This document shows positions 100-16,470 of a stretch of DNA of 64,000 bases, piece after piece. The notes under the pieces are model-generated. The model saw nothing but the letters and a program-made list of their open reading frames with translations. It was not told where the DNA came from and made no database searches. A program made the translations under genes and the position numbers. This DNA is from Candidatus Levyibacteriota bacterium (GTDB lineage Bacteria; Patescibacteriota; Microgenomatia; Levybacterales; UBA12049). The stretch is from positions 312,012-376,011 of the forward strand of contig JAJDCG010000001.1 of the NCBI GenBank assembly GCA_029260965.1. The letters are read 5' to 3'. How positions within the stretch are numbered: position 1 is the first letter of the stretch; each line of letters starts with the position of its first letter.

Positions 100-1071
100 T
101 CATATCGTGATTTTATTTATGTTTTCTATTATACGTTTTTCAATAGGATAATCAAACTCCTCAAAAGTATTCCCAGTTATTTTTTCATAAACTTCAACAT
201 AACGCTGTGCTGTTTGGATTATCAAATCCTCCGACATTTCAGGAGGAGGCCCATCTCCCTGATACCCTTTGTCAGCATACCAAAGACGTAAGAACTCTTT
301 ATCAAAATTCTCTGGCTCCTGGCCTTTGATTATTCTCTCTTTGTATGTATCAGCAATCCAGAATCGTGATGAGTCAGGAGTATAGATTTCATCAATCAAC
401 ATCAATTTTCCATCAAATAATCCAAATTCATATTTTGTATCAACCAAAATAATTCCGTGCTCAGCACACCACCTGCTGCCAAATTCAAACAAATCGAGGG
501 AAACTTTTTCCATTTGTTCATAGAGTTTTTTATTGACAATTTTTTGATTGATAATCTCTTCTCGTGTTAATCTCTCATCATGAACATCGGATCCTGCAGC
601 TGGATGAGTGGTGGGTGTGATGATTGGCTGTTTTAGTCTTTGATTTTTTTTCATACCATCAGGAAATCTAATTCCATAGATATTTCGTTCTCCGTTTTGA
701 TAGGAATACCATACAGATGTTTTGGTAACTCCTGATAGATAGCCTCTTACAACCATCTCAACGGGAATAGGCTTACAATTTCTGGAAATAAGAACATTTG
801 GGTCGGGGACTGAGAGCATATGGTTATCAACTATATTTTTTGTCTTTTCAAACCAAAATGCTGCTAGCTGATTAAGAACTGCGCCCTTGAAGGGAATGTT
901 TCCCAAAATTACATCAAAAGCTGACTGTCTATCTGTTGTTACGGTTATTCTCGTATTATTTTTAATATAAAAATCACGCACCTTGCCCGAGTATTTTTTT
1001 CCAAGATTTGGAAGATCGATAGATTCTAAAGCACGAGGAATTGTATTTAATATTGTTTTTTCATCAATCAT
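100..1071 (-). CDS. purC: Phosphoribosylaminoimidazole-succinocarboxamide (SAICAR) synthase, long (~320 aa) form
   Basis: 323-aa ORF with the SAICAR-synthetase fold (long eukaryote/yeast-like form rather than the ~237-aa bacterial form). Last gene of the overlap-coupled pur operon; 4-nt overlap with purE. Confidence 0.8.
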
Positions 1072-1601
1072 TTATTTTTATCAAGATAATCTTTAACACC
1101 TAGTCTATCAAGCATATCTACCTTTTCCATTACCATATCTTCAAGATCTATTTGATATTTTTCCAATTTTTTCTGAATTTCTTTATTAGTAGCGCCGATT
1201 ATTCGGGCTGCCAGGAGTCCTGCGTTTTTAGCGCCATTTATCGCAACTGTTGCAACAGGTATGCCTGATGGCATCTGGACAATTGATAGAAGTGAGTCAA
1301 GTCCATCAAGGGACTTTGTTTTGACAGGGACACCGATAACTGGAAGAGTTGTGTGAGAGGCAACCATACCTGGAAGATGAGCTGATCCACCAGCTCCAGC
1401 AATTATTACCTGTAAGCCTTTGCCTGATGCTGTTTTGGCATACTCATTCATTCTGTCTGGTGTTCTGTGAGCTGAGACAATTGTTGTTTCGTTTGGTATA
1501 CCAATCTCGTCAAGAATTTTTCCTGCCTCACTCATCACAGGGAGATCACTATCCGAGCCCATTATTATGCCAATGATTGGTTGATTGTTTGAATTCTCCA
1601 T
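1068..1601 (-). CDS. purE: N5-carboxyaminoimidazole ribonucleotide mutase (class I PurE)
   Basis: PurE motifs GSDSDLPVM and [16 protein letters not shown]. Start moved to the internal ATG (MENSNN.., 1599-1601), leaving a 2-nt gap after the purK stop instead of a 46-nt overlap. Confidence 0.85.
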
Positions 1602-1603
1602 TG

Positions 1604-2743
1604 CTATACTGTTATAAGTGACCTTGCTTTTTCTGCCTTTGCTTTGCATTCATCAAGCGAATTTCCAACAACTGTGATGTGTCCCATTTTGCGTTCAATT
1701 CTTGTCTCCAGTTTACCATAAATATGGACAAAAACGCCAGGAATTTTTTCGGCTTTTTTAATTCCTTGAGGCTTTGCTTTTCCTTTTCTTTCTCCAAGTA
1801 TGTTTATCATTACCGAGGCTGGCACAATCATTTTGGTCTCTCCAAGATCCATTCCCGAAATAGCTCTGAGGTGTTGTTCAAATTGAGATGTTTTATTTGC
1901 TTCAATTGTATGGTGGCCTGAGTTGTGAACGCGTGGCGCAATTTCATTTATAAGGATTTCGTTAGCAGCAGTTAGAAACATTTCTACCCCAAATACTCCA
2001 GCTCCATCAAGTAGTTTTATTGCATCTTCTGCTATTTGTTTTGCTTTCGCCTTAGTTTTTTTATCAATGGACGCAGGAGAAAAAAGATAATTAAGAATGT
2101 TATTTTCATGAATTGTCTCAACAACAGGATATGAGTTAATTATACCAGAAGTATTTCTAGCCACCATAATAGCTAATTCTTTCTTAAACGGTACAAACTT
2201 TTCTACATATAAATTTTTGCCATGAAGTTTTCCTAGCGCGTCATCAATTTGATTTTCTGTTTTGATTAATGCATTTCCTCTCCCATCATACGCGCCAGTT
2301 CTAGCCTTTAGCAGTACAGGATATCCAAATTTTTTAATTGCCATTTTTATATCAGATTTTGTTTTTACTTCCAAAAAATCAGGAATCGGTAGATTATTTT
2401 TTTGGAGGAATTCGTTTTGTTTGAGCTTGTCTTGAATAATAGCTAGTGTTTTGGGAGATGGATGAACTGGTTTACCACCGTCCTTGATTTCTTGAAGAAT
2501 GTTTTGGAGTCCTTTCTCATTTGTTACTTCAACTTCAATTGTCAAAACATCTGTTTTGTCAGCAAGTTCCTGAATTGCTTTTTTGTTAGTAAGCTCAGCT
2601 ACTATTTGTTCATCTGCTATTTGTCCTGCAGGGGAATTGGGATCGGGGTCTAGTACTATTAGTGAGAATCCAAGCTTGTGCGCAGGGTCAACCATCATTC
2701 TGGCCAACTGCCCTCCACCAATTATTCCTACTCTAGTTGTCAT
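1604..2743 (-). CDS. purK: N5-CAIR synthetase (ATP-grasp)
   Basis: N-terminal [13 protein letters not shown] and an ATP-grasp body typical of PurK. Start chosen at [11 protein letters not shown] (ATG 2741-2743), which has an AGGAAA SD-like element; the ORF-track start at 2761 has none. Confidence 0.8.
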
Positions 2744-4136
2744 TTGTATTTCCTGATTCATCTATTTCTTTTATAGCTTTTTCTGTTAACTCAACAGCAA
2801 GTCCGATATAGTTTTCGGGAGTCAATTTTTTAAATTTTGTTTTTATATTTTCATCAACTGATAATCCATCAACCCACTTGCTCCAATCTTCAGGATTTAC
2901 GTTTTTTCCTCTTGTAAGAGTCGAGATAAGTGAATAAGGATCATTAACATTTTCTTTCCTTAAAAAGGTTTGAACAGCCTCTCCCAGTATCGACCAGTCT
3001 TTATTAAGCGCCCTTATTATCTCCTCAATGTTTGGTTCAATTCTTGAAAGACCAGCTAGGGTACTTTTGTATCCGATCAAAGAATTGCCAAGAAATGTTC
3101 CGATTTCCCTAAGAGTTGTGCTGTCAGATAAGTCCCTTTGCAGTCTTGAGATGGGTAGTTTGCGGACAAAAAAATCACCCAAAGAATTTGCTATTCCAAG
3201 ACGTCCTTCACTATTTTCAAAATCAATTGGATTTACCTTTTGGGGCATGGTTGACGATCCCACCTCGCCTTTTACAGTAGATTGCACAAACCAATGATCA
3301 CTGATATATCGCCACATATCCTGGTCCAGATCAATTATGATTCCATTTATTCTTTGATAGACTTGGATCATCTCGATTATATCCTCAGGTGGATTGATTT
3401 GAGTTGTAACAAGATTTGGTGTAAGCTCGAGAGATTTTATAAATTTTTCAGAAAATTCAATCCAGTCAATATTAGGATAGGTGTAGAATAAAGCATTAAA
3501 ATTTCCAACAGCTCCATTTAGTTTTCCTGTTAGCTTTAGTGATTTGAGTTTAATTGCCTCGTTGTTTAAGCGAGTTGCAAATACCGCAAATTCTTTGCCG
3601 ACAGTGGTTGGGACCGCTGCTTGTCCATGAGTTCTAGCAAGCATGGGTATAGCTTTGTATTTTTCAGCTCTTTTTACCATTTCACCGACAAGCTTATTGA
3701 GTTTTGGAAGTATTACCTTGTTGGTTGCATCAACTAGCTGCATTCTGTATGAGAGATTATTAATGTCTTCTGATGTGAGACCAAAATGAATCATTTCAAG
3801 TTGATCTTTGAGAGTTGTAGATTCAAGTTTTTTTCTCAATATTCGCTCAACTGCCTTGACATCATGACGAGTTTCTTTTTCAATATCTTTTACTTTTTCA
3901 ATATCTTCATCAGTTATTATTTCACTGCTTAAGTCCTGCAATAATTTTTCTTCTTTTTCTGTAAATTTGCGGGCAATACCTGCAATTGATAAAGCAAGAA
4001 GATATTTGGCTTCAATTTTGATGCGGTTTTTTATAAGTCCGTATTCTGATGTGATGGTTGAGAGTTCATCTACTTTTTGATTATATCTTCCATCAATTGC
4101 AGATATTGATTTTAGGGTTGATTTTTGATCTTTCAT
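2733..4136 (-). CDS. purB: Adenylosuccinate lyase
   Basis: 467-aa ORF of PurB length, with the fumarate-lyase family signature region (GSSTMPQKVNP-like) and the N-terminal IDGRYNQ motif. Confidence 0.85.
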   Translation of the reverse strand: MKDQKSTLKSISAIDGRYNQKVDELSTITSEYGLIKNRIKIEAKYLLALSIAGIARKFTEKEEKLLQDLSSEIITDEDIEKVKDIEKETRHDVKAVERILRKKLESTTLKDQLEMIHFGLTSEDINNLSYRMQLVDATNKVILPKLNKLVGEMVKRAEKYKAIPMLARTHGQAAVPTTVGKEFAVFATRLNNEAIKLKSLKLTGKLNGAVGNFNALFYTYPNIDWIEFSEKFIKSLELTPNLVTTQINPPEDIIEMIQVYQRINGIIIDLDQDMWRYISDHWFVQSTVKGEVGSSTMPQKVNPIDFENSEGRLGIANSLGDFFVRKLPISRLQRDLSDSTTLREIGTFLGNSLIGYKSTLAGLSRIEPNIEEIIRALNKDWSILGEAVQTFLRKENVNDPYSLISTLTRGKNVNPEDWSKWVDGLSVDENIKTKFKKLTPENYIGLAVELTEKAIKEIDESGNTNDN

Positions 4137-4137
4137 A

Positions 4138-5232
4138 CTAACTAATTATATCACTTAGCTTGTTTTGTTCTTGTGCTTTTTTTATTTCCATAGCAATTCT
4201 ACGCCCAACATTTACAGGTTTTCCAAAGAGATAGCCACTGTACGGCGTTGCTGTAATTCCTGGTGATCCGGGGAAACGGGGAGAGACATCTATAACAACT
4301 ATGTCTTTTTTTGGTGGACCTGGTACTATAAATGATTGAAGCGCAAACGGTCCGACAATACCAGGATTTGTTAGTTCTTTGCAGGCTTTTACAAATCTCT
4401 CACCAATTTCAAATGCTGGCTCAAGCATTGATTCAAGAACTGTTACTGCGGTATGACTTGCTTCTTCATAAGAGATTGTGATTTTTTTTAAAACTTCTTC
4501 TTGATAATTAGCTGGCAGTTTGGTTATTCCATGAAAATTTGTTTGGCGTCTGGTATCGGTTCCAAGAAGCTCAAGTCTGTCTGATATGGGTGAATAGAAA
4601 AAGTTGAAGTTAACTTGTACTCCTACGATGAATTCTTCGATCACTGCTTTTTTGATCTGTTCTTCTGTAAAAAGACCGATATACATCTTCTGTTCTATTT
4701 GCTTGAGATAATCTTCATAGCTATCAACTATAAAAAATGCTCTTTCAAATTCTCTGTCTTTCTCGAGAATCTTTACAAGACATACTCTGTCTATTTTTTT
4801 AGGGTCTTTGAATTGTTTGGGGTAGCGGATTTTGGCAACATCAAGAAGGTCGTACTGGTTTGGCTTGAAACCTCTTTCCTCAATTCTTAAAAGTTTTTTA
4901 TTTCCAAACATAGGGACTTCAAATTTATTTTCAATTGCATCATAGTCATTGATATATACCTCAAAAGATCTATTTGGGATAAAAATTGCGTTTGCGGCTT
5001 TCAATTTTTCCTGGATATCAGGATTTAGCACTTCTGAAAATTTATTTACCAAAATTACTTCATCAACACATCCGGTTTCACCCTTTGATTTATAGTACTT
5101 TGCATATGTTTTTTCTCTACCTTTCTGACAAATAATTAAATTTTTAAATCCCTCATCTTTGGCGCCGCGAGCTACTTCGAGTGCCGAATGGCTGCCAATT
5201 GCTGCAATTGTTATTGGTTTATTGCTGTTCAT
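4138..5232 (-). CDS. purP: Archaeal-type formate-dependent FAICAR synthetase (PurP family; DUF1246/DUF1297 ATP-grasp), paralog A
   Basis: N-terminal IAAIGSHSALEVARGAKDEGF and the FFYSP / GPFALQ ATP-grasp motifs resemble archaeal PurP as I recall it. 364 aa. Confidence 0.65.
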   Translation of the reverse strand: MNSNKPITIAAIGSHSALEVARGAKDEGFKNLIICQKGREKTYAKYYKSKGETGCVDEVILVNKFSEVLNPDIQEKLKAANAIFIPNRSFEVYINDYDAIENKFEVPMFGNKKLLRIEERGFKPNQYDLLDVAKIRYPKQFKDPKKIDRVCLVKILEKDREFERAFFIVDSYEDYLKQIEQKMYIGLFTEEQIKKAVIEEFIVGVQVNFNFFYSPISDRLELLGTDTRRQTNFHGITKLPANYQEEVLKKITISYEEASHTAVTVLESMLEPAFEIGERFVKACKELTNPGIVGPFALQSFIVPGPPKKDIVVIDVSPRFPGSPGITATPYSGYLFGKPVNVGRRIAMEIKKAQEQNKLSDIIS

Positions 5233-5233
5233 G

Positions 5234-6727
5234 TTAGTGCTTAAAGCTTCTGATTCCCGTAAATATCATAGCGACATCTGCTTCATTGCAGGCGTCAATT
5301 GTTTCTTGATCTCTGATAGAGCCTCCAGGTTGAATGATTGCTTTAATCCCTGCTTTTATTAATGTGTCTGGTCCGTCTCTGAAAGGAAAAAATCCATCTG
5401 TTGCTGCGACTGCTCCCTCAAGAGGCGTGAGTGCCTTACTGACACATAGCTCGCAACATCTTTTTCTGTCTTGTTGACCAACTCCTGATGCAATCAAAAC
5501 ACCATCTTTTACAGCAACAACACAATTTGATTTACTGACTTGAGATATTTTCCAAGCAAACATCAAGTCATCAATTTGTTTGCTGGTTGGTTTTTTCTTT
5601 GTCACTGTTTTTAGGTTATTTACCTCAAGCCTCATGATATCAGCATCCTGGATCAGATATCCTCCTCTGACTCTCTTTTGATCATCATACGGGACAAGAA
5701 AGGGTTTTTCAAGGTCTTTATTTTCAAGAAGTTGGAGTTTTGGTCTACTACTGAGCTCAGCTAAGGCTTCTTTTGTAAATCCTGGTGCTGCCACTATTTC
5801 AAAAAACTTTTTGTCTGCAAGCATCTGTTTTGCTAGTTTTTCATCTACAACTCTGTTGAATAAGATTACTCCTCCGAATGCCGCCAGGGGATCTCCCTCA
5901 AACCATGCTTTATGAAAAGCATCATGAATATTGTCGGCAATTGCAACGCCACATGGATTGGTGTGTTTTAAAATAACACAGGCAGGTGTTGCGCCGTTGA
6001 TTAGTGAAATTGTCATAAGTCCTGAATCAAGATCTAGATAATTATTAAATGATGTTTCCTTTCCTTGAATAACCTTGAAGTTGTTAAGTCCGAGTTTGTC
6101 TTTTCCATTATCAGAAAAGAAAAAGGCTTTTTGATGAGGGTTTTCTCCATATCTTAATTCTTTTCCGTTTTTTAAAATTTGATATTTATTTTTTGATCCG
6201 AAGAAGTTTGAGATTGAGATATCATATTCTGTAACATATGAAAATGCTTTTGCTGCTAATTTTTTTCTTTCCTCAAGTGTTGTTTGTCCTTTTGTCAGTA
6301 GTTTATAATCGTCAGGATCAACCAAGACAGATACGCTTTCATAGTTTTTGGCTGCAGCCCTTGCCATTGTTGGTCCGCCAATATCAATCATTTCAATACC
6401 AGGTTTTTCGCTGAAGGCGTAAAAATTACAGATTACGAAATCTATATGAGGGATTTTTAATTCTTCTGCTTCTTTCTGATGAGTTTTATTGCTTCTGTCA
6501 AAGAGAATTCCTGAGAGCGCCTGAAAGCTAATTGTCTTTACCCGACCACCAAAACTTTCAGGGTTTTTGGTAATTTCTTCAATTGGTGTAATCTTGATTT
6601 TATTTTTCTTGAGAAGTTCAGCTGTGCCGCCGGTTGCAATTATTTCTATATTATTTTTTATGAGGTTTTTTGCCAGATCTACAATTCCGGTTTTGTCATA
6701 AACACTAATTAGGGCGTATTTCTTCAT
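5234..6727 (-). CDS. purH: Bifunctional AICAR transformylase / IMP cyclohydrolase
   Basis: N-terminal MGS-like IMPCH domain (ALISVYDKTGIV..ATGGTA) and C-terminal AICARFT domain with the KHTNPCGVA motif. Full length at 497 aa. Confidence 0.9.
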   Translation of the reverse strand: MKKYALISVYDKTGIVDLAKNLIKNNIEIIATGGTAELLKKNKIKITPIEEITKNPESFGGRVKTISFQALSGILFDRSNKTHQKEAEELKIPHIDFVICNFYAFSEKPGIEMIDIGGPTMARAAAKNYESVSVLVDPDDYKLLTKGQTTLEERKKLAAKAFSYVTEYDISISNFFGSKNKYQILKNGKELRYGENPHQKAFFFSDNGKDKLGLNNFKVIQGKETSFNNYLDLDSGLMTISLINGATPACVILKHTNPCGVAIADNIHDAFHKAWFEGDPLAAFGGVILFNRVVDEKLAKQMLADKKFFEIVAAPGFTKEALAELSSRPKLQLLENKDLEKPFLVPYDDQKRVRGGYLIQDADIMRLEVNNLKTVTKKKPTSKQIDDLMFAWKISQVSKSNCVVAVKDGVLIASGVGQQDRKRCCELCVSKALTPLEGAVAATDGFFPFRDGPDTLIKAGIKAIIQPGGSIRDQETIDACNEADVAMIFTGIRSFKH

Positions 6728-6729
6728 AA

Positions 6730-7746
6730 TTATCCAAGGATTAGGGGCAGCTTGTTTTTTTCAATTGCAATTTTTATCTCCCTTGCGATCCTCCTTCCTG
6801 TGCTCATTGGTTCGTTATAGTAGAGCCATGAATATGGAGAGCCGTTGGTAAAGATGTTTGTGCCAGCGACAATCCTGCAGGAAATTTCAAGAACGTAAAA
6901 TTTGGCATCAGGGGTGATTATGGTTTCAAGACAAAAAGGTCCAAAAATTCCTTTTTTATCTATTAATTTTCTGGATGCTTCAATTGTTTTTCTGCCCATA
7001 TCATATGCTTCAGGCAGCATACTCTCACGTAACACAAGATCACTGTTTCCAACAACAACATAACTTGGTTCAATGTCTAGCCCTTCCTGTCCAAGAAGTG
7101 GAATTCTTCCTATCCCATCAGCATTTGTTTCATATCTTCTGTCCATGCTCATAATCTCCAATTTGTCAGTAAGAGGAGAGTAGAAATAATGTATGTAAAG
7201 AGGTACACCAATCACGTATTCTTGAATTATGAATTTTTTATTACCAAAAGCAATGATTTTTTTTTCAAAATCAGTTTTGTTTTTTGCGTAAAAATATCCT
7301 TTTCCACCAGCTGCACCATAAGATTTCACAATAATTGGATAAGTGACCGGTTCGTGTTCGAAATCATACTGTTTAGGAACATTAATTCCTGCTTTGCTGA
7401 GCCACTCTCTTTGTTGTCTCCTGTCTTCTTCCCAGTCAAGAACACTCTTATTGCCATAATATGGCAATTTCATGTTTTTGTTCTTTTCTGTTCCAAGATG
7501 AGCTACAAATGAACCATGAGGTATGATAATGACGTTTTTTTCTTTTAGTTTATCCTCGATTGAGGGAAAGTCTGAAAATGAAGCAAGAGTTATGAATTCA
7601 TCAATAAAGGGAAATGATTTGTAGAATTCCTCTCGTTCTTTTGTGGTGATTATGAGAGTTTTAAAGCCTTCGTCTTTGGCGCCTTTTAATATCTGAAGCG
7701 ATGAATGACTTCCTAGTGTCGCAATTGTGTGTTTATTATTTTTCAT
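6730..7746 (-). CDS. purP: Archaeal-type FAICAR synthetase (PurP family), paralog B
   Basis: IATLGSHSSLQILKGAKDEGF, IIPHGSF, HYFYSP, GPFCLE and LSTGRRIAREIK motifs closely follow PurP. 338 aa. Confidence 0.7.
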   Translation of the reverse strand: MKNNKHTIATLGSHSSLQILKGAKDEGFKTLIITTKEREEFYKSFPFIDEFITLASFSDFPSIEDKLKEKNVIIIPHGSFVAHLGTEKNKNMKLPYYGNKSVLDWEEDRRQQREWLSKAGINVPKQYDFEHEPVTYPIIVKSYGAAGGKGYFYAKNKTDFEKKIIAFGNKKFIIQEYVIGVPLYIHYFYSPLTDKLEIMSMDRRYETNADGIGRIPLLGQEGLDIEPSYVVVGNSDLVLRESMLPEAYDMGRKTIEASRKLIDKKGIFGPFCLETIITPDAKFYVLEISCRIVAGTNIFTNGSPYSWLYYNEPMSTGRRIAREIKIAIEKNKLPLILG

Positions 7747-7749
7747 AGT

Positions 7750-8553
7750 TTATTTATTAAAATATTGTACAGCATTTTTGAATATAGATAAACCCGGTCC
7801 TTCAGATGATGTTTTTTTGCCTGTTCTTTTGTGCTCTTCTTTTTTAATTTGCCAGTTGGGGAGTTGGGTAAAAAACATGCCCCGTTCAGGGTGTGGCATG
7901 AGACCCAGTATTTTTCCTGATCCATCAATGATGCCTGCTATATCAAGCGCTGATCCGTTGGGATTGTAGGGAAGATCAAGATATTTACTCATTTCGCCAG
8001 CCTCATATTTTAGTGCAATTTGTTTGTTCGTTTCAAGTTTTTTGAGATCATTTGCTTTTGCAAAAAACTTTCCTTCTCCATGCGCAATTGGCAAAGATAG
8101 TTTTTCTATTCCATCAAGCCAGGGAGTTTTGGTGGTTACTTTTAGATCAGTCCAGCGACATATGAATCTCGCGCTTTCATTATTTAAAAGCGCCAAATCT
8201 CTTTGACCATAGTTATTTTCAAATGCTGGAAAAAGTCCAGTATTGGCAATAATTTGACAACCATTACAAATTCCGATTACTAATTTATCTTTTTCTATAA
8301 ATTTCAATAACTTTTCCCAGAGATGATTTTTAATCTTGTTTGCGTATGCGATACCAGCTCCTGTATCATCGCCATATGAAAATCCTCCGGGAAAAGAAAG
8401 AATCTGGTAGTCATCGAGTTTGTAAAGTCCATCAATTATGTCATTGATGTGGATTATCTCTGATTCAGCACCAGCCAGTGTAAAGCCATATGCTGTTTCT
8501 GCTTCCGAGTTTAGTCCGTATCCTGAGAAAATTAGCACTCTTGGTTTTTTCAT
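7750..8553 (-). CDS. purQ: FGAM synthase glutaminase subunit
   Basis: Class-I glutamine amidotransferase: GICNGCQ nucleophile elbow and HPER near the C-terminus, which are PurQ hallmarks. Confidence 0.85.
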   Translation of the reverse strand: MKKPRVLIFSGYGLNSEAETAYGFTLAGAESEIIHINDIIDGLYKLDDYQILSFPGGFSYGDDTGAGIAYANKIKNHLWEKLLKFIEKDKLVIGICNGCQIIANTGLFPAFENNYGQRDLALLNNESARFICRWTDLKVTTKTPWLDGIEKLSLPIAHGEGKFFAKANDLKKLETNKQIALKYEAGEMSKYLDLPYNPNGSALDIAGIIDGSGKILGLMPHPERGMFFTQLPNWQIKKEEHKRTGKKTSSEGPGLSIFKNAVQYFNK

Positions 8554-8555
8554 AT

Positions 8556-11522
8556 TTAATAATCTTTAAAAGTTTTTTTATATTGATTTTTTGCGTTATT
8601 AAGCTTTATGTTTACTATTTTCTTTCCCGATAAGCCTTTTATTATTATTTCAGGTTTTTTTGTAACTGTTCCAATTTGTTTTATTTTATTTCCACTCATT
8701 GTCTTTTCAAATGCTTTTTTATTTTTGGGTGCGATTGATATTAGAATTCTGCCTTGGCTTTCTGAAAAAAGAGCCAGATCATTTCTTGTGATGCTACCTG
8801 GAAGATTTTCAAGTGACACATCAACACCCAGCATCCCACCAATTGATTTTTTGGCAATAGCAACAGCCAGACCGCCTTTGCCTATGCTGATACTTGATGC
8901 GATCAGTTCTTTTTGAATTGCTTTGTAGAAATCTTTGTACATTTTAAAATTCTTTTTTGTATTTACAATTGGTGTTTTCGTACTGCTGACATTCTTCATA
9001 GATAAATACTCGGATCCTCCCAGCTCATCAAAAGTTTCACCTAGGATATAAATCAAATCATTTTCCTTTTTTGCATCAAGAGAAACTGTTTTGTTTATAT
9101 CCTCAATAACACCAATTGATGAGATCAGAAGGGTTGGGGGAATTGTGACTTTTACTGGTTTGCTGTTTTTGTCAAAACCGTTGAATTCATTAAACATGCT
9201 GTCTTTTCCTGAAATGTAGGGAGTTTGATAATCAACTGCAGTGTCATAGCATGCTTTGGCTGCCATTTTTAGTTGAAAAAGCCTTTGGGGGGTATTGCTT
9301 TCTGTCCAGCAAAAATTATCAAGCAAAGCGATATAGTCAGGATTGCCACCTATTGCAACTGCATTGCGAACTGCTGTATCTATACTTGCTGCAGCCATAG
9401 CATAAGGATTTATGTCAGAGTAGTTTGGATAAAGAGCTTGAGACATCACAACGCCTCTTTGAGACTGAAGAACTGGACGGAAAACAGACGCTTCTGAGTT
9501 TACTCGACCTGATCCCTGGAGTGGCCCGAGGACTGCACCTCCGAGCACTATGTGATCGTACTGGCTAGAGATGAATTCAATGCTGGTTATGTTTAATCTT
9601 GCAAGCATCTGAGAAACAGACATGTTTAGATTCACATCTGTTGGTATTGTTGCCTGGTGCTTGTTGTTTGTTGTTTTGTCAGAAATCATCTTGCGTTGGG
9701 GTAATCCGTCGTGGAGAAATTTCATATCAATATCGAGAATTGTTTTGTTTTTGTATTTTACAATTCCTTTTTTTGAGTTGGTAAATTTACCAATTATCGT
9801 TGCTTCAACGCCTCGTCTTTTCATAAGGGAGTTAAATTTAACCCAGTTTTTTTCTGGAACAGCAAGGGTCATTCTTTCTTGAGATTCTGATATCCAGATT
9901 TCCCAAGGGTCCAGGCCCTGGTATTTGAGTGGGGTTTTTTCAAGATCGAGTACAAATCCTCCTGACTCTTTTGCCATTTCTGAAACAGAGCAAGACAGTC
10001 CTCCTGCTCCATTATCAGTTATGCTGCTGTAGAGAAGTTGATCTCTTGCTTCATTTATAATTGCGTCGCTTAATTTTTTTTGTGTGATAGGATCACCGAT
10101 CTGGACTGCTGCTGCTGGGCTTTTAGTGTTTAGGCTTTCTGAAGAAAAGGTTGCTCCGTGCACACCGTCTTTTCCGACTCTTCCACCGATCATGACTATC
10201 AGGTCACCAGGTTGAGCATTTTTGATGTGTGAGGGTTTATTTTTTATTTTTTTGGGAATAAGACCTATTGTTCCCGCAAAGACAAGCGGTTTTCCTCTGT
10301 AGCCCTCATGGAAATAAACAAATCCCTGAGGTGTTGGGATTCCTGATTGATTACCACCTGCATTTATTCCAGCAATAACCCCATCCATAATTCTGCGGGA
10401 TGAGAGCATTTTTTGAGATTTATTTTTATTTCTATATAAAGGTATGTCTATTGCAGGATCTGCAAGGCAGAATCCATAAAAATTTGCAACCGGTTTGGCT
10501 CCAAGTCCAAATCCCAGTGTGTCGCGATTGACACCTACTATTCCAGTTATTGCTCCGCCAAATGGATCAAGAGCTGATGGGCTGTTGTGTGTTTCGACTT
10601 TATGAGTGATTAAATAATTTTCATCAAACGAAATGCCACCTGAATTGTCAGTGAATACTGATACGCAAAAATCTTTCTTTCCTTTAATTTTCCTTATTTT
10701 TTCAGTTGCGCCCTTGATGTAGGTTTTATATAGCCCATTTTTAATATTGTCGATTGGATCATTAAAAATAGTGTGCTTACAATGCTCAGACCATGTTTGG
10801 GCAAGTGATTCCAGCTCTATATCAGTTGGGCTTCTTCCAAGTTTTTTAAAATATTTTTGAATGGTTTTCATGAATGAAAGATCAAGTGCTAGGGGGCCAC
10901 GAGTTGTTCCGTCCTGGTTTTGGATTCCATTTTTTCCTATTTTTGCTAGCTCTTCATCGCTGATATTTAGATTTATCTCAATGACTTTTGGTTGATGCTT
11001 TATATCTACTTTTGGAACGAATAAATCCATTCCGCCGTCTTTTAGGAATTGCTGATAGCTCTTGATGTGGGCTCTCTGGATAAGAGGATTGTAAAGAGTT
11101 AGCGATATTTCTTTTGCGTCTTTTTCAGACACTTTGCCTGTCAAAAAGGTTACTTGAGACGAGTAGACATCTTCACCGTTCCTAAATTTTGTTTTTAGAC
11201 TATCTTCAATTATTTCTTTTGCAGTATGTCCGATGTTGTCTGTAACTCCAGGTAAAAATCCAATCTCAATTGCAAAGGTGAATTTTTTAGGAGGTGTAAA
11301 TCTAGCTTTTTCTGTTTGAAAGACAACTGATTGGGTTAGGGGATTTGATAGTTTTTTCCCGATTGATATCAGTTGTTTATCATCTAGTTTTTTTGCAACA
11401 GTATAAATGTCATAGATCCAAAGATCTTTTATTTTTTTAAATCCCTGATTTTTCAGTTTATCGATACGATTTTTGGCTCTGGTATCAAAAACATTTGTAA
11501 TTATTCCAATTCTTGCTGTCAT
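8556..11522 (-). CDS. purL: FGAM synthase synthetase subunit with a fused large-PurL-type (PurS-like) N-terminal domain
   Basis: 988 aa. Residues ~200-250 (GRSPTDIELESLAQTWSEHCKHTIF) match the linker/start of the FGAM-synthetase domain in single-chain large PurL (cf. E. coli ..[25 protein letters not shown]). The ~200 aa before it correspond to the PurS-like N-domain. There is no glutaminase domain (PurQ is separate). Confidence 0.85.
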   Translation of the reverse strand: MTARIGIITNVFDTRAKNRIDKLKNQGFKKIKDLWIYDIYTVAKKLDDKQLISIGKKLSNPLTQSVVFQTEKARFTPPKKFTFAIEIGFLPGVTDNIGHTAKEIIEDSLKTKFRNGEDVYSSQVTFLTGKVSEKDAKEISLTLYNPLIQRAHIKSYQQFLKDGGMDLFVPKVDIKHQPKVIEINLNISDEELAKIGKNGIQNQDGTTRGPLALDLSFMKTIQKYFKKLGRSPTDIELESLAQTWSEHCKHTIFNDPIDNIKNGLYKTYIKGATEKIRKIKGKKDFCVSVFTDNSGGISFDENYLITHKVETHNSPSALDPFGGAITGIVGVNRDTLGFGLGAKPVANFYGFCLADPAIDIPLYRNKNKSQKMLSSRRIMDGVIAGINAGGNQSGIPTPQGFVYFHEGYRGKPLVFAGTIGLIPKKIKNKPSHIKNAQPGDLIVMIGGRVGKDGVHGATFSSESLNTKSPAAAVQIGDPITQKKLSDAIINEARDQLLYSSITDNGAGGLSCSVSEMAKESGGFVLDLEKTPLKYQGLDPWEIWISESQERMTLAVPEKNWVKFNSLMKRRGVEATIIGKFTNSKKGIVKYKNKTILDIDMKFLHDGLPQRKMISDKTTNNKHQATIPTDVNLNMSVSQMLARLNITSIEFISSQYDHIVLGGAVLGPLQGSGRVNSEASVFRPVLQSQRGVVMSQALYPNYSDINPYAMAAASIDTAVRNAVAIGGNPDYIALLDNFCWTESNTPQRLFQLKMAAKACYDTAVDYQTPYISGKDSMFNEFNGFDKNSKPVKVTIPPTLLISSIGVIEDINKTVSLDAKKENDLIYILGETFDELGGSEYLSMKNVSSTKTPIVNTKKNFKMYKDFYKAIQKELIASSISIGKGGLAVAIAKKSIGGMLGVDVSLENLPGSITRNDLALFSESQGRILISIAPKNKKAFEKTMSGNKIKQIGTVTKKPEIIIKGLSGKKIVNIKLNNAKNQYKKTFKDY

Positions 11523-12793
11523 AATCTGCCTATATCTGATCTGTATTGCATTCCCTCAAAATGTATTCCGTTTGGGCCAATTGTACTGTAAGCCTTTTTT
11601 AGGGCCTCATTTAGAGTTTCACCTGTTGCTGTTATGCCCAGGACCCGACCGCCGTTTGTGACAAAATTGTTTCCATTTTTTTTGGTAGCAAAGTGAAAGG
11701 TAGTAATTTCGGGATCATGGGCAAATTTCTCCAATCCGTTGATTGCAATCCCTTTTTGCGAACTGACGGGATAACCATTTGATGCAAGGACAATGCAACA
11801 AGCGATTTTTTTTGACCATTTTATATTTATTTCCGAAAGTTTTTTTTCTACGCAAGCGTTTAATATTTCAAAAATATCTGTCTCAAGAAGTCTCATGTAG
11901 GACTCCATTTCTGGATCACCAAAGCGTGAATTAAATTCAATTACTTTCGGTCCGTCTTTTGTCATCATCAATCCTGGATAAAGGCATCCTGTAAAGGGAA
12001 TTCCCATTTTTTTCATTCCCTGAATTGCTGGAGTCACAATTTTTTCTTTTATTTCATTAATTTCTTTTTCTGATATTTCAGAAAGTGGCGCGATAGTTCC
12101 CATGCCACCGGTATTGGGACCTCTATTGCCATCGTGAATTGGTTTGTGATCTCTTGCTGTTGGGAAAAGTGAAATTGTTTTTCCGTCAGAGAATGCATGG
12201 ATTGAAACTTCCTTACCCTCCAGATATTCCTCGATTACTATTTCCGCTCCAGCATCACCAAAAACTTTTTTGATCATCGCATCATTAATTGCGCTGATTG
12301 CTTCATTGATTGTTTTTGCAACAACAACGCCTTTGCCCAATGCGAGGCCTGATGCTTTTATGACAATGGGTGCTCCATGTTTTCTTGTATAATCTTTCGC
12401 TTTTTCAGCATCAGTAAACGTTTTGTATCTTGCTGTTGGTATATTATTTTCCCTCATCAGGTTTTTTGCAAACGCTTTTGATGACTCAATTTGCGCAGCT
12501 TCTTTTGTGGGACCAAAAATTTTGAGTTCATGTTTCTCAAAGGTGTTTACTATGCCAGATGCTAAGACATCATCAGGTCCGGCAATAGTTAGGTCAATCG
12601 AGTTTTCTTTTACGAATTTGATGAGGGATTCAAAATCAAATGGGTTGATGTCTGTGTTTTTTCCGACCAGCTCAGTGCCTGCTGTTCCTGGGGCAAAATA
12701 AATATTGTTAACCTTTGGTGATTGTTTTAATTTCCAGCCCAATGCATGTTCTCGTCCTCCTGATCCAATAATTAATATGTTGTTTTTTACCAT
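11519..12793 (-). CDS. purD: Phosphoribosylamine-glycine ligase (GAR synthetase)
   Basis: N-terminal ILIIGSGGREHALGWKL; ATP-grasp; 424 aa. Confidence 0.9.
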   Translation of the reverse strand: MVKNNILIIGSGGREHALGWKLKQSPKVNNIYFAPGTAGTELVGKNTDINPFDFESLIKFVKENSIDLTIAGPDDVLASGIVNTFEKHELKIFGPTKEAAQIESSKAFAKNLMRENNIPTARYKTFTDAEKAKDYTRKHGAPIVIKASGLALGKGVVVAKTINEAISAINDAMIKKVFGDAGAEIVIEEYLEGKEVSIHAFSDGKTISLFPTARDHKPIHDGNRGPNTGGMGTIAPLSEISEKEINEIKEKIVTPAIQGMKKMGIPFTGCLYPGLMMTKDGPKVIEFNSRFGDPEMESYMRLLETDIFEILNACVEKKLSEINIKWSKKIACCIVLASNGYPVSSQKGIAINGLEKFAHDPEITTFHFATKKNGNNFVTNGGRVLGITATGETLNEALKKAYSTIGPNGIHFEGMQYRSDIGRL

Positions 12794-14916
12794 ACAAAAT
12801 CTCCTTTACTGATATCGATATTTTGGCTAATAACGTGAAGTACTCTTTTTATAGCTGTTGGTAAAACCTGGTATTCTGTTTCATGTATTTTTTTCTCCCA
12901 TGTTTCAAATGAATCGTTTTTGTGTCTGGCAACCTCTGATTTTAATATAATCGGGCCTATATCAAAATTTTCGCTTGGAATCACTTGATGAACAGTGACA
13001 CCTGATACTGGAAGATTTTGATCATACGCTTCTCTTATTGCGTGAGCGCCTCTGATTACGGGAATTTTTCCTTTGGATGTGCGGATTGTTTCTTTGAATT
13101 CTTTTGTCATTAGTGAAGGGTGGAGATTTATTACTGGTATTTCAAGGTTCTGCATTTCTTTGAGGAATTTATATCCTAGTACCAACATCCAGCCTGACAA
13201 TATAATGAGGTCAGGGTTTGTATTTTTAACCTCAGCAGTCAATTTTTCTTCATAGTTTTCACGTGTTTTTTTATCTGAAAGTTTACCCTGGTATGGAATT
13301 ATTGATATCGGAATATTATGTTTTTTGGCTCTAATTGTAGCGTATGCATCTTCCTTATTGGAGAGGACAGATATAATTTTTGCGTTTATATCGTTAGACT
13401 CAATACGATCTATTATTTTTTGTAAATTTGTTCCTGATCCTGAAACAAAGATAGAGATTTTGGGCTTGCTATTTATTTTTTTATGCATTTTTTTAAATAC
13501 AAATTGTTCGTCTCTTACAGGATGTGGGCCACCGAAAATGTAGTGATAAAAATCTTCTTTTTTACCACCCATTGCAAGTGCTGTTTCTTCAATGGGTAGG
13601 TATATTACTTCATCTGCTTTGACTTTTTTTGCCATTTCTTTTTCTATAATTTCAATTGGTTCATTTTCAAATGCGGATGCAGCCAATTCTTGTTTAGTTC
13701 TCATATCAATTCCTAAATCGCATTGATTCACAACAGGAGGGGATGCAAAAGCCATATATATTTTTTCAGCACCAGCATCTCTGATGTCTCTTGCTAGTAT
13801 TGTGCTTGTTGTTAGTCTGACTGCAGAGTCGTCAACAACTATCACTTTTTTTCCTCTGATCTCATCAGCAACAACATTATGCTTACCACTTACTGCTGCA
13901 ATTCGGTTCTCTTGACCAGGTCTTATAAAGGTGCGTCCGACATAGTGACTTGTGGTAATAGCATCAACAATAGGAATATCAAGTTCTTTGGCAACTCCTT
14001 TGGCAGCAGGATACCCAGAGTCGAAAATGGGGATAACAATATCTGCCTTGATTCCCTTGTTTCTTATCCGTGTTCCTAGGAACTTTCCTGATTTTTCTCG
14101 TCCTGCTTTTACTCTTTTACCGTTTGCAAAACTGTCAGGGCGTGAGAAGTAAATTCCCTCAAAGATGCACGGCTGTGGTTTTTTAACAGTCCCGAAAAAC
14201 TGAGAATTGATAGTGCCTTCATCGTCAATGCGTATTATTTCCCCGGGTATGATGTCGCGTAGGTATTCTGCTTTTAGAATATCTAAAGCAACCGATTCAG
14301 ATGCCATAACCCATCCGTCATGAAGTTTTCCAAGGCAGAATGGTCTGATACCGTATGGGTCTCTAATGCCGAATAGTTCATTGTCATTAGTGACAATAAC
14401 TAGGTTGTATGCGCCGTTGAAAAGGGGCATACATTTTTTTATAGTATCTATCCAAGTTTTATATTTTGGTCTTTCCTGGATCAAAAATTCTGCAACAATG
14501 TTCGTATCGCTATCTTGTTGTTTTTTATTTTTTAAAAGTTTTATTACATTTGAAACATCAGGAATATTTCCGTTGTGGCCTATTGATATCTCAAATTTTC
14601 CATTTTTCAGGTGAATTGGCTGAGCATTGTTTAAAGAAGATTGTCCAAAAGTACCGTATCTGTTTTGACCTATCGCAAACTTACTTTTGCCGAATTTTTT
14701 TACAACCTTGTCATTGAGAACGTGTGGTATGAGTCCCATGTTTTTGTAGGTTAAAATTTTATTTTTTGCTCCAATAACACTCATACCAGCACTTTCTAAT
14801 CCACGGTGTTGGAGTGTGGCGAGACCTGATCTCGCATAGTATGCTGCATTGCTATCAGCGGTGTAGATACCGATGACTCCACATTTTTCATGAATATCTA
14901 ATTTGCTGTTTCTCAT
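12787..14916 (-). CDS. purF: Fusion protein: amidophosphoribosyltransferase (PurF) + phosphoribosylglycinamide formyltransferase (PurN)
   Basis: Residues 1-~470 carry an 11-aa propeptide then Cys (MRNSKLDIHEKC-GVIG), the Ntn glutaminase domain and a PRTase domain (VIVVDDSAVRLTTS). Residues ~480-709 carry a PurN domain (SGSGTNLQ, NLHPSL, SGVTVHQV..DIGPII). Confidence 0.8.
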   Translation of the reverse strand: MRNSKLDIHEKCGVIGIYTADSNAAYYARSGLATLQHRGLESAGMSVIGAKNKILTYKNMGLIPHVLNDKVVKKFGKSKFAIGQNRYGTFGQSSLNNAQPIHLKNGKFEISIGHNGNIPDVSNVIKLLKNKKQQDSDTNIVAEFLIQERPKYKTWIDTIKKCMPLFNGAYNLVIVTNDNELFGIRDPYGIRPFCLGKLHDGWVMASESVALDILKAEYLRDIIPGEIIRIDDEGTINSQFFGTVKKPQPCIFEGIYFSRPDSFANGKRVKAGREKSGKFLGTRIRNKGIKADIVIPIFDSGYPAAKGVAKELDIPIVDAITTSHYVGRTFIRPGQENRIAAVSGKHNVVADEIRGKKVIVVDDSAVRLTTSTILARDIRDAGAEKIYMAFASPPVVNQCDLGIDMRTKQELAASAFENEPIEIIEKEMAKKVKADEVIYLPIEETALAMGGKKEDFYHYIFGGPHPVRDEQFVFKKMHKKINSKPKISIFVSGSGTNLQKIIDRIESNDINAKIISVLSNKEDAYATIRAKKHNIPISIIPYQGKLSDKKTRENYEEKLTAEVKNTNPDLIILSGWMLVLGYKFLKEMQNLEIPVINLHPSLMTKEFKETIRTSKGKIPVIRGAHAIREAYDQNLPVSGVTVHQVIPSENFDIGPIILKSEVARHKNDSFETWEKKIHETEYQVLPTAIKRVLHVISQNIDISKGDFVW

Positions 14917-14959
14917 AAGTATGAATTATAAAAAAATAATTCTAAAGTTTTCTGATTTT

Positions 14960-14988
14960 GGGACGAAAAACCCCGCGTCGTAGCGGGG
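14960..14988 (-). terminator. Leader hairpin (CCCCGC-loop-GCGGGG) followed by T5 on the minus strand, inside the purF 5' UTR
   Basis: Forward 14971-14988 ccccgcgtcgtagcgggg. The minus-strand reading is hairpin then TTTTTCG (forward A-run 14966-14970). It lies between the putative promoter and the purF start codon. Confidence 0.4.
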
Positions 14989-15056
14989 CTGCAAAAATTT
15001 AATGATATCTATTTTTAATAATCTTGAAATTATGGACCATGTAGTTTCCATACATG

Positions 15057-15085
15057 ATTATAATTCATTTGAGTTTTGGTGTCAA
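15057..15085 (-). promoter_or_regulatory. Near-consensus sigma70 promoter for the pur operon (TTGACA-17 nt-TATAAT)
   Basis: Minus strand: TTGACA (forward tgtcaa 15080-15085), a 17-nt spacer, TATAAT (forward attata 15057-15062). About 135 nt upstream of the purF ATG. Confidence 0.45.
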
Positions 15086-15465
15086 TTATCTTTCAAAATT
15101 GCTATCATTATAATGACGTGAAGAAAATAGTTATTAGAAATATATTTGTCATATCTATAATTTTTCTTATTGTTTTTTTAGTTTCAGCAAATGAAGAGTA
15201 TATCAGAAGGAAAGCTATTTCTCTTCTGGGAGATGGTACTTCTCAGGTAAGGGGTGCTAGCACAGAGAAGGGGGAAGAGGTATCAGGAAAGATCAGCTCA
15301 GATATTGGCGACCAAATGAGCTTAATAAAAGATGATTTGCTTGACATAAGAATAGGGGACATTATGGATGGTTTGTCTCGTGCTAGAAAAATTTCTCATG
15401 ACCTTAGTCAAGTAAGTATTTATATTCGAGATAAAGTTGATGGTGTGTTACAATCTGATAAATAA
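15076..15465 (+). CDS. Hypothetical small membrane-anchored protein (N-terminal TM; alternative GTG start at 15115)
   Basis: The ORF starts with TTG in the track and there is no ATG. It has a hydrophobic N-terminus (IVIRNIFVISIIFLIVFLV) then a charged soluble part. It ends 3 nt before prfB. Confidence 0.35.
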   Translation: MVSIIFQNCYHYNDVKKIVIRNIFVISIIFLIVFLVSANEEYIRRKAISLLGDGTSQVRGASTEKGEEVSGKISSDIGDQMSLIKDDLLDIRIGDIMDGLSRARKISHDLSQVSIYIRDKVDGVLQSDK

Positions 15466-15468
15466 TTT

Positions 15469-16470
15469 ATGGATGATTTAAAAACTAGACTTAAAAAAAT
15501 ACTAGAAAGAATAGATCCTGATTCTCAAAAAGCAAAAATAAGAGAACTAACAGCAGAAAGTATGAAGCCGGATTTTTGGCAGGATCACCAGAAAGCTGCA
15601 AAAAAGATGAAAGAGCTGTCTGATTTACAAAATGAGGTAGACGAGGCGGAGAAGTTGTTTGTTTTTGTTGAGGAAGGAAATGAAAAAGAAGCAGAAAAGC
15701 TGTTAAAAAAAATGGAGACTATATTATTCTTTTCAGGGGAGCACGATAGTGCAAATGCAATAGTTGGAATCCACTCAGGGCAGGGTGGGACAGAGGCAAT
15801 GGATTGGGCTGAGATGCTTTTTCGTATGTATACGAGATATTTTGAGAAAAAGGGCTGGAGCTATGAAATACTTGATCAGACAACAGGTGAAGAAGCTGGA
15901 ATAAAAAGCATAACAATTGCAATTAGTGGGAAATATGCTTATGGTTATCTCAAGCATGAGGCAGGCGCGCATCGATTGGTGCGTCAGTCACCGTTTAATG
16001 CTGATAAATTGCGTCAAACATCATTTGCATTAGTTGAGGTAATGCCTGAAGTTGAGGATGCAAAAATTGAGCTCAGAGATGATGATATCGAATTCGAAGC
16101 TTTTAGATCTGGTGGTCATGGGGGTCAAAATGTAAATAAGGTTTCGACCGCAGTGCGCTTGAAGCACAAGCCAACCGGAATTGCAGTTGCGGCATCGGTT
16201 GAAAGATCGCAAATTCAGAATAGGGAATTTGCCATGAAGTTGCTTCGCGCAAAATTGTGGGCAATTGAGGAAGAAAAGCAAAAGAAAAAGGAGGCTGAGC
16301 TAAAAGGTGGATACAAAACCCCAGGTTGGGGAAATCAGATCCGCTCATACGTATTGCATCCATACAAAATGGTTAAGGACCTCAGGACTCAAGTTGAAAC
16401 AGGAAACACCGACGCAGTGCTTGATGGGGATTTGGATATGTTTATTGAAGAAGAACTGAGGAGTTTATAA
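15469..16470 (+). CDS. prfB: Peptide chain release factor 2
   Basis: The SPF tripeptide (RF2-specific) and the GGQ motif are present, with overall RF2 collinearity. There is no programmed +1 frameshift site. Confidence 0.9.

Follow-up and report, generated by a model that had tools for sequence, protein, structure and literature searches.

A conserved terminator in the leader of an 11-gene purine operon from a Candidatus Levyibacteriota bacterium: a probable transcription attenuator with a predicted leaderless reading frame

The 64,000-nt stretch of Candidatus Levyibacteriota contig JAJDCG010000001.1 considered here (the window) carries a purine-biosynthesis (pur) operon of 11 genes, tightly packed on the minus strand and headed by a gene in which purF and purN are fused (purFN). 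The region between this gene and a divergent transcription unit on the plus strand contains a consensus promoter, a predicted leaderless open reading frame (ORF) and an intrinsic terminator, and positions 15085-14917 of the minus strand are best explained as the regulatory leader of the operon. An earlier inspection of the sequence (the original prediction) had singled out the promoter and the terminator and had taken the leader for a candidate attenuator or riboswitch. The features of the locus are listed below in the direction in which the operon is transcribed, with the divergent unit last.

15080-15085, minus strand: -35 hexamer TTGACA of the leader promoter, read in the sequence and found in a promoter scan.
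15057-15062, minus strand: -10 hexamer TATAAT of the leader promoter, read and found in the same two ways.
15038-15056, minus strand: small inverted repeat CATGTA-TGGAAAC-TACATG, read in the sequence (-5.3 kcal/mol).
15032-15051, minus strand: possible 5'-proximal RNA hairpin AUGGA-N10-UCCAU, which includes the leader AUG (-3.6 kcal/mol, z = -0.8).
14926-15051, minus strand: 41-codon leader ORF plus stop, predicted to be leaderless, METTWSIISRLLKIDIIKFLQPRYDAGFFVPKSENFRIIFL, an open frame from the ATG after the -10 box.
14971-14988, minus strand: terminator hairpin CCCCGC-TACGAC-GCGGGG (-14.9 kcal/mol, z = -3.8).
14964-14970, minus strand: U-tract TTTTTCG, read in the sequence, which completes the intrinsic terminator.
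14925-14930, minus strand: second TATAAT, 8 nt before the purFN ATG, without a TG extension and without a -35 box.
12787-14916, minus strand: purF-purN fusion gene (709 amino acids), first gene of the operon, with matches to Pfam GATase_6/7, Pribosyltran and Formyl_trans_N and to NCBIfam purF and PurN.
100-12793, minus strand: remainder of the operon, namely purD, purL, purQ, a purP-like gene, purH, another purP-like gene, purB, purK, purE and purC.
15118-16470, plus strand: divergent unit with a membrane protein of about 115 amino acids (GTG start at 15118) and then release factor 2 (prfB, 15469-16470), both running away from the hairpin.

The leader promoter consists of TTGACA (15085-15080), a spacer of 17 nt and TATAAT (15062-15057) on the minus strand, just as the original prediction had it, and its -10 box lies 141-146 nt upstream of the purFN ATG (14916). 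It is the only 12/12 match to the consensus between 8 and 22 kb of the window and the only exact match in the whole 64 kb, where sites with at most one mismatch number 3 against 0.83 expected. The -10 box is part of the palindrome ATTATAAT, and TATAAT can therefore be read on the plus strand too. Five bases past the box, at 15051, begins ATGGAAAC (minus strand), and with it the leader ORF.

Further downstream, the hairpin and its U-tract are present as originally described and have the build of an intrinsic terminator: a GC-rich stem of at least 5 bp, a short loop and a U-tract directly 3' of the stem. The pattern CCCGC-N6-GCGGG-N-TTTT occurs once, where shuffled sequences give an expectation of 0.00, and perfect GC-rich stems followed by a T-run exist at only three sites in the whole window, this one among them. 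From the end of the T-run to the purFN ATG there are 49 nt, in agreement with the distance of about 50 nt given before. A consensus terminator scan did not list the hairpin (14988-14964); this miss is likely an artefact of the tool, in which a G.U/A-U extension of the stem uses up the T-run. More generally, consensus scans may under-call terminators with A...U flanks.

Is this arrangement maintained outside the window genome? A single PurFN protein query of a species-representative genome collection returned relatives at no more than 33% identity, and in a large protein collection more than 100 PurF-PurN fusions at 53-64% identity were found, together with SecA homologues at 68-76%. The fusion is usual in the clade (more than 100 protein clusters of 699-757 amino acids in the same identity range). 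Few of the homologues carry names, and those that do are assigned to the Patescibacteria group, Levyibacteriota, Roizmanbacteria and Saccharimonadales, plus some discordant automated labels, which suggests a bacterium of the candidate-phyla-radiation type. The comparison comprised the window leader and those of 10 distinct relatives (L013, L014/L107, L016, L097, L100, L102, L103, L108, L110 and L111), that is, 11 leaders partly related by descent, whose PurFN proteins are 53-64% identical. As a negative control, 394 kb of purF loci from other phyla were used (at least 80 metagenome loci listed, all at no more than 39% identity).

In all 10 further leaders, (A)CCCGC, a variable loop of 5-6 nt, GCGGG and T6-T7 stand directly upstream of purFN. 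The CCCGC/GCGGG core of the stem is invariant in 11/11 leaders while the loop varies in sequence and length, and the terminator is predicted in the minimum-free-energy (MFE) fold of every one of them, with strengths of -9 to -15 kcal/mol and U-tracts of U5-U7. Hairpin and U-tract are found in one copy per genome and nowhere else in 231 kb of leader-bearing genomes, and the 394 kb of control loci contain no such element except one intragenic chance match. The distance from the end of the T-run to the purFN ATG is 5-19 nt in 9 of the 11 leaders, 37 nt in L110 and 49 nt in the window. PurFN begins with Met-Cys-Gly-Val in L108 and L111, which fixes its start there. The N-terminal Cys is the nucleophile of this amidotransferase family, and the start codon is certain in both because the catalytic Cys must follow Met. 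A gap of 5-19 nt leaves no room for a promoter or a ribosome-binding site (RBS), so that transcription of the operon must pass through the terminator; the window carries a caveat on this point, in that its 49-nt spacer holds one -10-like TATAAT. Promoter and leader terminator are thus real, non-random and conserved, and the hairpin is very probably the leader terminator of the pur operon and functions as a transcription attenuator. The comparison of leaders that the original prediction had proposed as a check finds the element in all 10 further distinct relatives, and it strengthens the attenuation reading, given that the terminator is kept directly upstream of purFN in 11/11 leaders and that read-through is obligatory.

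A second conserved component, overlooked in the original prediction, is a short ORF, leaderless by its layout, that runs into or through the terminator. TATAAT or TATAAA, exactly 5 nt and then ATG are found in all 11 distinct leaders, and the TTGACA-17-TATAAW arrangement of the window promoter recurs in L013, L110, L108 and L111. The ORF that begins at this ATG is 12-41 codons long, and the first base of its stop codon, counted from the hairpin start, is in every case found between -10 and +60. Three positions of the stop occur: 3-10 nt before the stem (L014/L107, L097, L102, L108 and L111), inside the hairpin loop (L016 and L100) and past the hairpin (the window, L013, L103 and L110). The window ORF spans the hairpin, ends 9 nt short of the purFN ATG and is in frame with purFN. 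Frame 0 is open in 11/11 leaders, and frames +1 and +2 carry 1-6 stops in 10 of them. Shuffled sequences keep a frame free of stops up to 10 nt or less from the hairpin with a probability of 0.07-0.5 per sequence, and the joint chance is about 5e-4 when five lineages are taken as conservatively independent. The two length differences found among the relatives between the ATG and the TTGACA box are both of 3 nt. The encoded peptides are not conserved across the 11 leaders.

The start of this ORF has to be seen against the way in which genes begin in this genome. The lack of a convincing Shine-Dalgarno (SD) sequence before purFN, remarked on in the original prediction, is borne out and turns out to be a genome-wide trait, an SD-like 4-mer preceding only 7 of the 56 window ORFs. 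A -10-like hexamer lies 3-12 nt before the start codon in 23 of these 56 ORFs, about 3.8 being expected, with a modal spacing of 6 nt, which suggests that leaderless or near-leaderless messenger RNAs (mRNAs) dominate in this organism. A leader ATG placed 5 nt past a consensus -10 box is in keeping with this tendency.

Does the leader RNA contain a sensor of its own? Rfam 15 gives 0 matches at the gathering score in the window and in four relatives' loci, which agrees with the original failure to match the guanine/adenine, ZTP or PRPP aptamer consensus, and at E-values of up to 5-10 nothing riboswitch-like appears in three leaders. The sub-threshold matches are to Trp_leader, at 17.6-21.1 bits (gathering score 41), in the window (14963-15056, minus strand), L016 (2928-2988) and L111 (2910-2995), and they recur because the terminator resembles that of the Escherichia coli trp attenuator. 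RNAalifold places 7 consensus pairs in the 11 leaders, all in the terminator and with no double-sided change; the stem being invariant, the covariation by which a structured leader was to be recognized is absent. Between the expected transcript start and the hairpin, the distance ranges from 44 to 91 nt and the sequence is unalignable between leader types (window, L108, L111 and others). No MFE or centroid fold of the 11 leaders pairs the terminator arms with upstream sequence, so that none of them has an antiterminator. With Rfam empty, only the terminator conserved and no competing fold, the riboswitch or T-box that had been entertained for this leader finds no support. The same holds for PurR/PurBox control: the consensus sequences of the E. 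coli PUR box and the Bacillus subtilis PurBox (ACGCAAACGTTTGCGT with up to 4 mismatches and AWWWCCGAACWWT with up to 2) are unmatched in 10 of the 11 leaders, and the one match, in L014, is at chance level.

Two smaller hairpins deserve mention. The repeat CATGTA-TGGAAAC-TACATG (15056-15038) is present in the sequence as originally noted, but its assignment to the leader RNA probably does not hold. Both the expected start site and the leader ATG fall within it, and its CATGTA arm would mostly be untranscribed because the repeat begins 1 nt past the -10 box, upstream of the expected start. It has no counterpart at the same position in the relatives' leaders and is probably not an RNA element. 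Among the relatives, six lineages have an intact hairpin of the form AUGCU-N9-AGCAU, of which L014 retains only a part and which is disrupted in L102/L103. The loop of this hairpin lacks conservation, its reading frame differs between leaders, and 14-50 nt separate it from the terminator. Hairpins of 5 bp of this kind arise by chance in AT-rich sequence. The weak AUGGA-N10-UCCAU hairpin of the window may correspond to that of the relatives. Homology between the relatives' hairpin and the small hairpin of the original prediction was also considered; it is possible through compensated pairs (AUGGA/UCCAU, UGCC/GGCA), and was set aside since the sequences cannot be aligned with confidence.

How, then, could RNA polymerase reach purFN? 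The RNA alone terminates and offers no antiterminator, so that read-through needs an outside agent that blocks the stem, and relief by a ribosome on the leader is more likely than relief by a riboswitch. The best model, which is held tentatively, is attenuation of the pyrBI/pyrE type coupled to translation of the leaderless leader ORF. According to this model, the consensus sigma-70-type promoter would start the transcript at or next to AUG 15051, giving a leaderless mRNA, and this AUG would open the 41-codon ORF that runs through the terminator (14988-14964). Naked RNA would fold the terminator, and with no antiterminator to compete, the default would be a short terminated transcript. Polymerase would proceed to purFN only if a ribosome on the leader ORF trailed at so short a distance that it covered the hairpin's 5' arm. 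Such a ribosome would reach the 5' arm in 11/11 layouts, though only just in L014/L107, whose stop is 10 nt upstream of the hairpin. A connection with purines can be imagined in two ways, both hypothetical. Low ATP or GTP might slow polymerase in the leader and thereby tighten coupling, by analogy with UTP-sensitive pausing. Alternatively, the choice of the first nucleotide might matter: a start at the A of the conserved T-A-T-G-G would yield a translatable AUG, and a start at the G two bases on would yield none. That this Patescibacteria-like clade has evolved a full purine counterpart of pyrBI/pyrE attenuation, with a leaderless ORF whose peptide is irrelevant and with purine read by pausing or start-nucleotide choice, is conceivable but doubtful. 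To our knowledge, the nucleotide-sensing attenuators described so far that are coupled to translation include none in a purine operon and none with a leaderless ORF.

Several observations weigh against the coupling model. The sample is modest, and its 11 leaders share part of their descent; L108 (P = 0.5, with one stop over both other frames) and L111 (all three frames open) are uninformative about the ORF. Variation among six relatives is flat over codon positions 1, 2 and 3 (0.30/0.30/0.34), so that the leader peptide is not under selection; the ORF, if it matters, would act through its translation and not its product, and a non-coding region would look alike. That the ORF is translated at all is something we infer from its architecture. 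Its -10-to-ATG spacing of 5 nt is one base under the genome mode of 6 nt, and polymerase may start inside the leader ATG. Moreover, seven relatives (L014, L016, L097, L100, L102, L103 and L107) have tandem promoter-like elements about 60-100 nt upstream of purFN, TGnTATAAT and then TTGACA-17-TATAAA. The second of these is perfectly kept; it lies within the leader ORF, whose translation renders it as Leu-Thr ... Ile-Asn-Asn, and is a homologue of the one promoter present in the leaders of L013 and L110. Part of the leader conservation is hence at the level of the promoter, transcripts from the second promoter would lack the ORF start, and these seven genomes may make two kinds of leader transcript. 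In the window itself, the TATAAT at 14930-14925, which is specific to this genome and absent from the relatives with a short terminator-to-ATG spacer, may be a weak promoter that bypasses the terminator. Finally, the A content is 45-52% in the relatives' leaders and 41% in the window leader versus 38% in coding sequence, which in the window is unconvincing as a signature of purine sensing, and no purine-specific feature was found.

Two rivals are more serious than the rest: a mechanism mediated by a protein, and a leaky terminator that is not regulated. In the protein-mediated case, an RNA-binding protein of the PyrR or TRAP kind, or a transcription factor, would read the invariant hairpin or the small hairpin upstream of it and would alter termination in response to a purine metabolite, and the ORF would be incidental. 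Something external must act on a leader RNA without its own antiterminator, and the invariance of CCCGC/GCGGG in 11/11 leaders goes beyond structural need while loop and flanks vary; the AUGCU-N9-AGCAU hairpin, conserved in sequence in six lineages and lying in different frames, is likewise not kept by way of a peptide. Yet a five-pair stem may be invariant simply since every pair is needed, and the upstream hairpin is broken in L102/L103 and wanders between 14 and 50 nt from the terminator. The 64-kb window yielded no candidate for such a regulator, the leaders have no known PurBox or PUR-box apart from the chance-level match in L014, and a dedicated factor is on balance unlikely. An unregulated terminator, the other main rival, would be leaky or would end a separate small transcript, with constant read-through and the TATAAT at 14930-14925 feeding the operon and no purine sensing at all. 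Small RNA genes are usually built in this way, with a promoter, about 85-120 nt and a terminator; a possible bypass promoter lies 8 nt before purFN in the window, and nothing specific to a ligand or to purines has been found. It would be hard to explain, in that case, why a strong terminator is kept 5-19 nt before a costly 11-gene operon across the clade, and a trans-acting product is improbable given that the peptide and most of the RNA are unconserved among the window, L108, L111, L013-type and L016-type leaders. This explanation, too, probably does not hold.

A very small, undescribed riboswitch in or next to the terminator, comparable to the hydroxymethylpyrimidine pyrophosphate (HMP-PP)/thiS type and binding phosphoribosyl pyrophosphate (PRPP), 5-aminoimidazole-4-carboxamide ribonucleoside triphosphate (ZTP), a guanine or adenine derivative or a nucleotide, would be missing from Rfam by definition; its location would be typical of purine-responsive riboswitches, and the terminator stem with its immediate flanks (AAAUAAC...GUUC) is unusually conserved. 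Against it stand the absence of any Rfam match even at permissive E-values, of conserved structure or covariation beyond the terminator in the 11 sequences and of a fold competing with it, the loop that varies in sequence and length, and an upstream leader of 44-91 nt that is unalignable between types, all of which make such an element improbable. Leader-peptide attenuation of the trp/his type, in which the ribosome would stall at a limiting amino acid such as the purine precursors Gln, Gly or Asp, is very unlikely: a leader ORF followed by a terminator is there, Gln-Gln is encoded in the leader of four relatives and Trp_leader is the best sub-threshold Rfam match (17.6-21.1 bits), but the 11 peptides share no amino-acid run, no 2:3 antiterminator pairing exists, and the scores, far under the gathering score of 41, are due to the similarity of the terminators. 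The idea that the hairpin terminates the transcript of a gene next door and is unrelated to purFN can be given next to no weight. The A-rich sequence before the stem and the T-run after it could in principle work both ways, yet transcription of both neighbours leads away from the hairpin, not only in the window but also in every relative. A bidirectional terminator of the plus-strand gene, which the original prediction had named as the alternative, is ruled out by the same divergence of the two flanking genes.

The operon that would be controlled in this manner has the same gene order in L097, L100, L102 and L103. Within it, two paralogous PurP-like genes (6730-7746 and 4138-5232, both minus strand) flank the canonical purH, and no separate purM is seen in the window operon. 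PurP is the archaeal-type enzyme formate-phosphoribosylaminoimidazolecarboxamide ligase. Inside the operon, 8 nt before the ATG of purB (2733-4136), lies an extended -10 box (TGATATAAT, 4137-4160, minus strand), a possible internal promoter.

On the other side of the leader, the membrane protein (15118-15465, plus strand) has homologues in L108 (1528-1872, minus strand) and L111 (2505-2855, minus strand) at 28-38% identity. In these two and in the window its gene directly precedes prfB. The L016-type relatives lack it, and it has no family match. Release factor 2 (15469-16470, plus strand) is 333 amino acids long and matches TIGR00020 with 429 bits; the prfB gene calls of 366-369 amino acids in L100 and L102 are in-frame upstream extensions. 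A +1 frameshift in prfB that would extend coding into the leader was considered and rejected, there being no CTTTGAC site and the ATG of the 333-residue form being common to all relatives. In most relatives an extended -10 element (TGTTAAAAT) lies 7-14 nt before the prfB ATG.

A further short ORF was encountered elsewhere in the window, between serS and secA. It encodes a lysine-rich product of 13 amino acids (MPAKKKAKKAKKK, 25142-25101, minus strand), is preceded by a perfect SD sequence (AAGGGAGGTGA), which places it among the very few SD-led genes of this SD-poor genome, and is followed by another of the three strong terminators of the window (25092-25064, minus strand). The ORF is kept as MPAKKKA[VK]KK... 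(15-24 amino acids) with the same SD sequence in L097 (at about 2124), L100 (about 3441), L102 (about 1991) and L103 (about 860), and its product may be a small basic protein, or the ORF may be a leader of secA.

Almost nothing is known of gene regulation in uncultured bacteria of the candidate-phyla-radiation or Patescibacteria type. The present element, about 135 nt long and conserved in the clade, very probably gates all 11 genes of a complete purine pathway, the presence of which is in itself uncommon in genomes this small. If the coupling model is true, a mechanism known only from enterobacterial pyrimidine genes would extend to purines and to leaderless mRNAs, and transcription-translation coupling would be a regulatory device in this lineage. 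If it is false, the invariant hairpin suggests a novel RNA-binding regulator or a minimal riboswitch. Either way, the leaders contain a class of unannotated short ORFs that gene callers miss. The interest of the element would clearly be higher if purine-sensing coupling were true, and it is small enough to be studied outside the organism with purified polymerase and coupled translation.

Known leaders resemble this one to different degrees. The B. subtilis pur leader, with its guanine riboswitch (Rfam Purine, RF00167), and the ZTP and PRPP riboswitches likewise place a terminator in the 5' leader of pur genes; the window leader differs in having no aptamer, Rfam being empty and no conserved structure lying upstream of the terminator. 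The E. coli trp attenuator has a near-identical terminator (CCCGCC-loop-GCGGG-U7/8), whereas Trp codons and the alternative 1:2 and 2:3 helices are absent here, and the likeness is a convergence on a minimal strong terminator, not homology. Leaderless short ORFs that act as attenuators have been described in mycobacteria, where they form a Cys "ribulon" (bioRxiv 10.1101/834739). As is predicted for the present case, the short ORF starts with an AUG at the very 5' end of a leaderless transcript, is unannotated, forms the first cistron of a biosynthetic operon and controls the downstream genes by being translated; the mycobacterial ORFs sense cysteine through poly-Cys codons and exert translational control by a structure that sequesters the RBS, while here there is no codon run and the hairpin is a transcription terminator.

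Closer parallels come from the pyrimidine genes of enterobacteria. The rph ORF ends a few nucleotides upstream of the pyrE attenuator, and the distance between its stop codon and the attenuator sets pyrE expression via translation-transcription coupling (PMC2784333, citing Bonekamp 1984), and the stop located 3-10 nt before the hairpin in L014/L107, L097, L102, L108 and L111 is reminiscent of this arrangement. The upstream ORF of that system is the full-length gene rph, in contrast to the leader of 12-27 codons with an unconserved peptide found here. In the UTP-sensitive pyrBI leader of E. coli, an ORF runs through the attenuator and the trailing ribosome blocks the hairpin. The present leader differs from it in that the pathway is that of purines and not pyrimidines, the leader ORF is apparently leaderless and not SD-led, no U-rich or evident A/G-rich pause cluster was identified and the lineage is Patescibacteria-like. 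A component of reiterative transcription also belongs to pyrBI (PMC6524683). In both, the leader of a nucleotide-biosynthesis operon combines a promoter with an ORF that crosses an intrinsic terminator, and lacks an antiterminator helix; the pyrBI-like layout in which the ORF continues through the hairpin is seen in the window, L103, L013 and L110.

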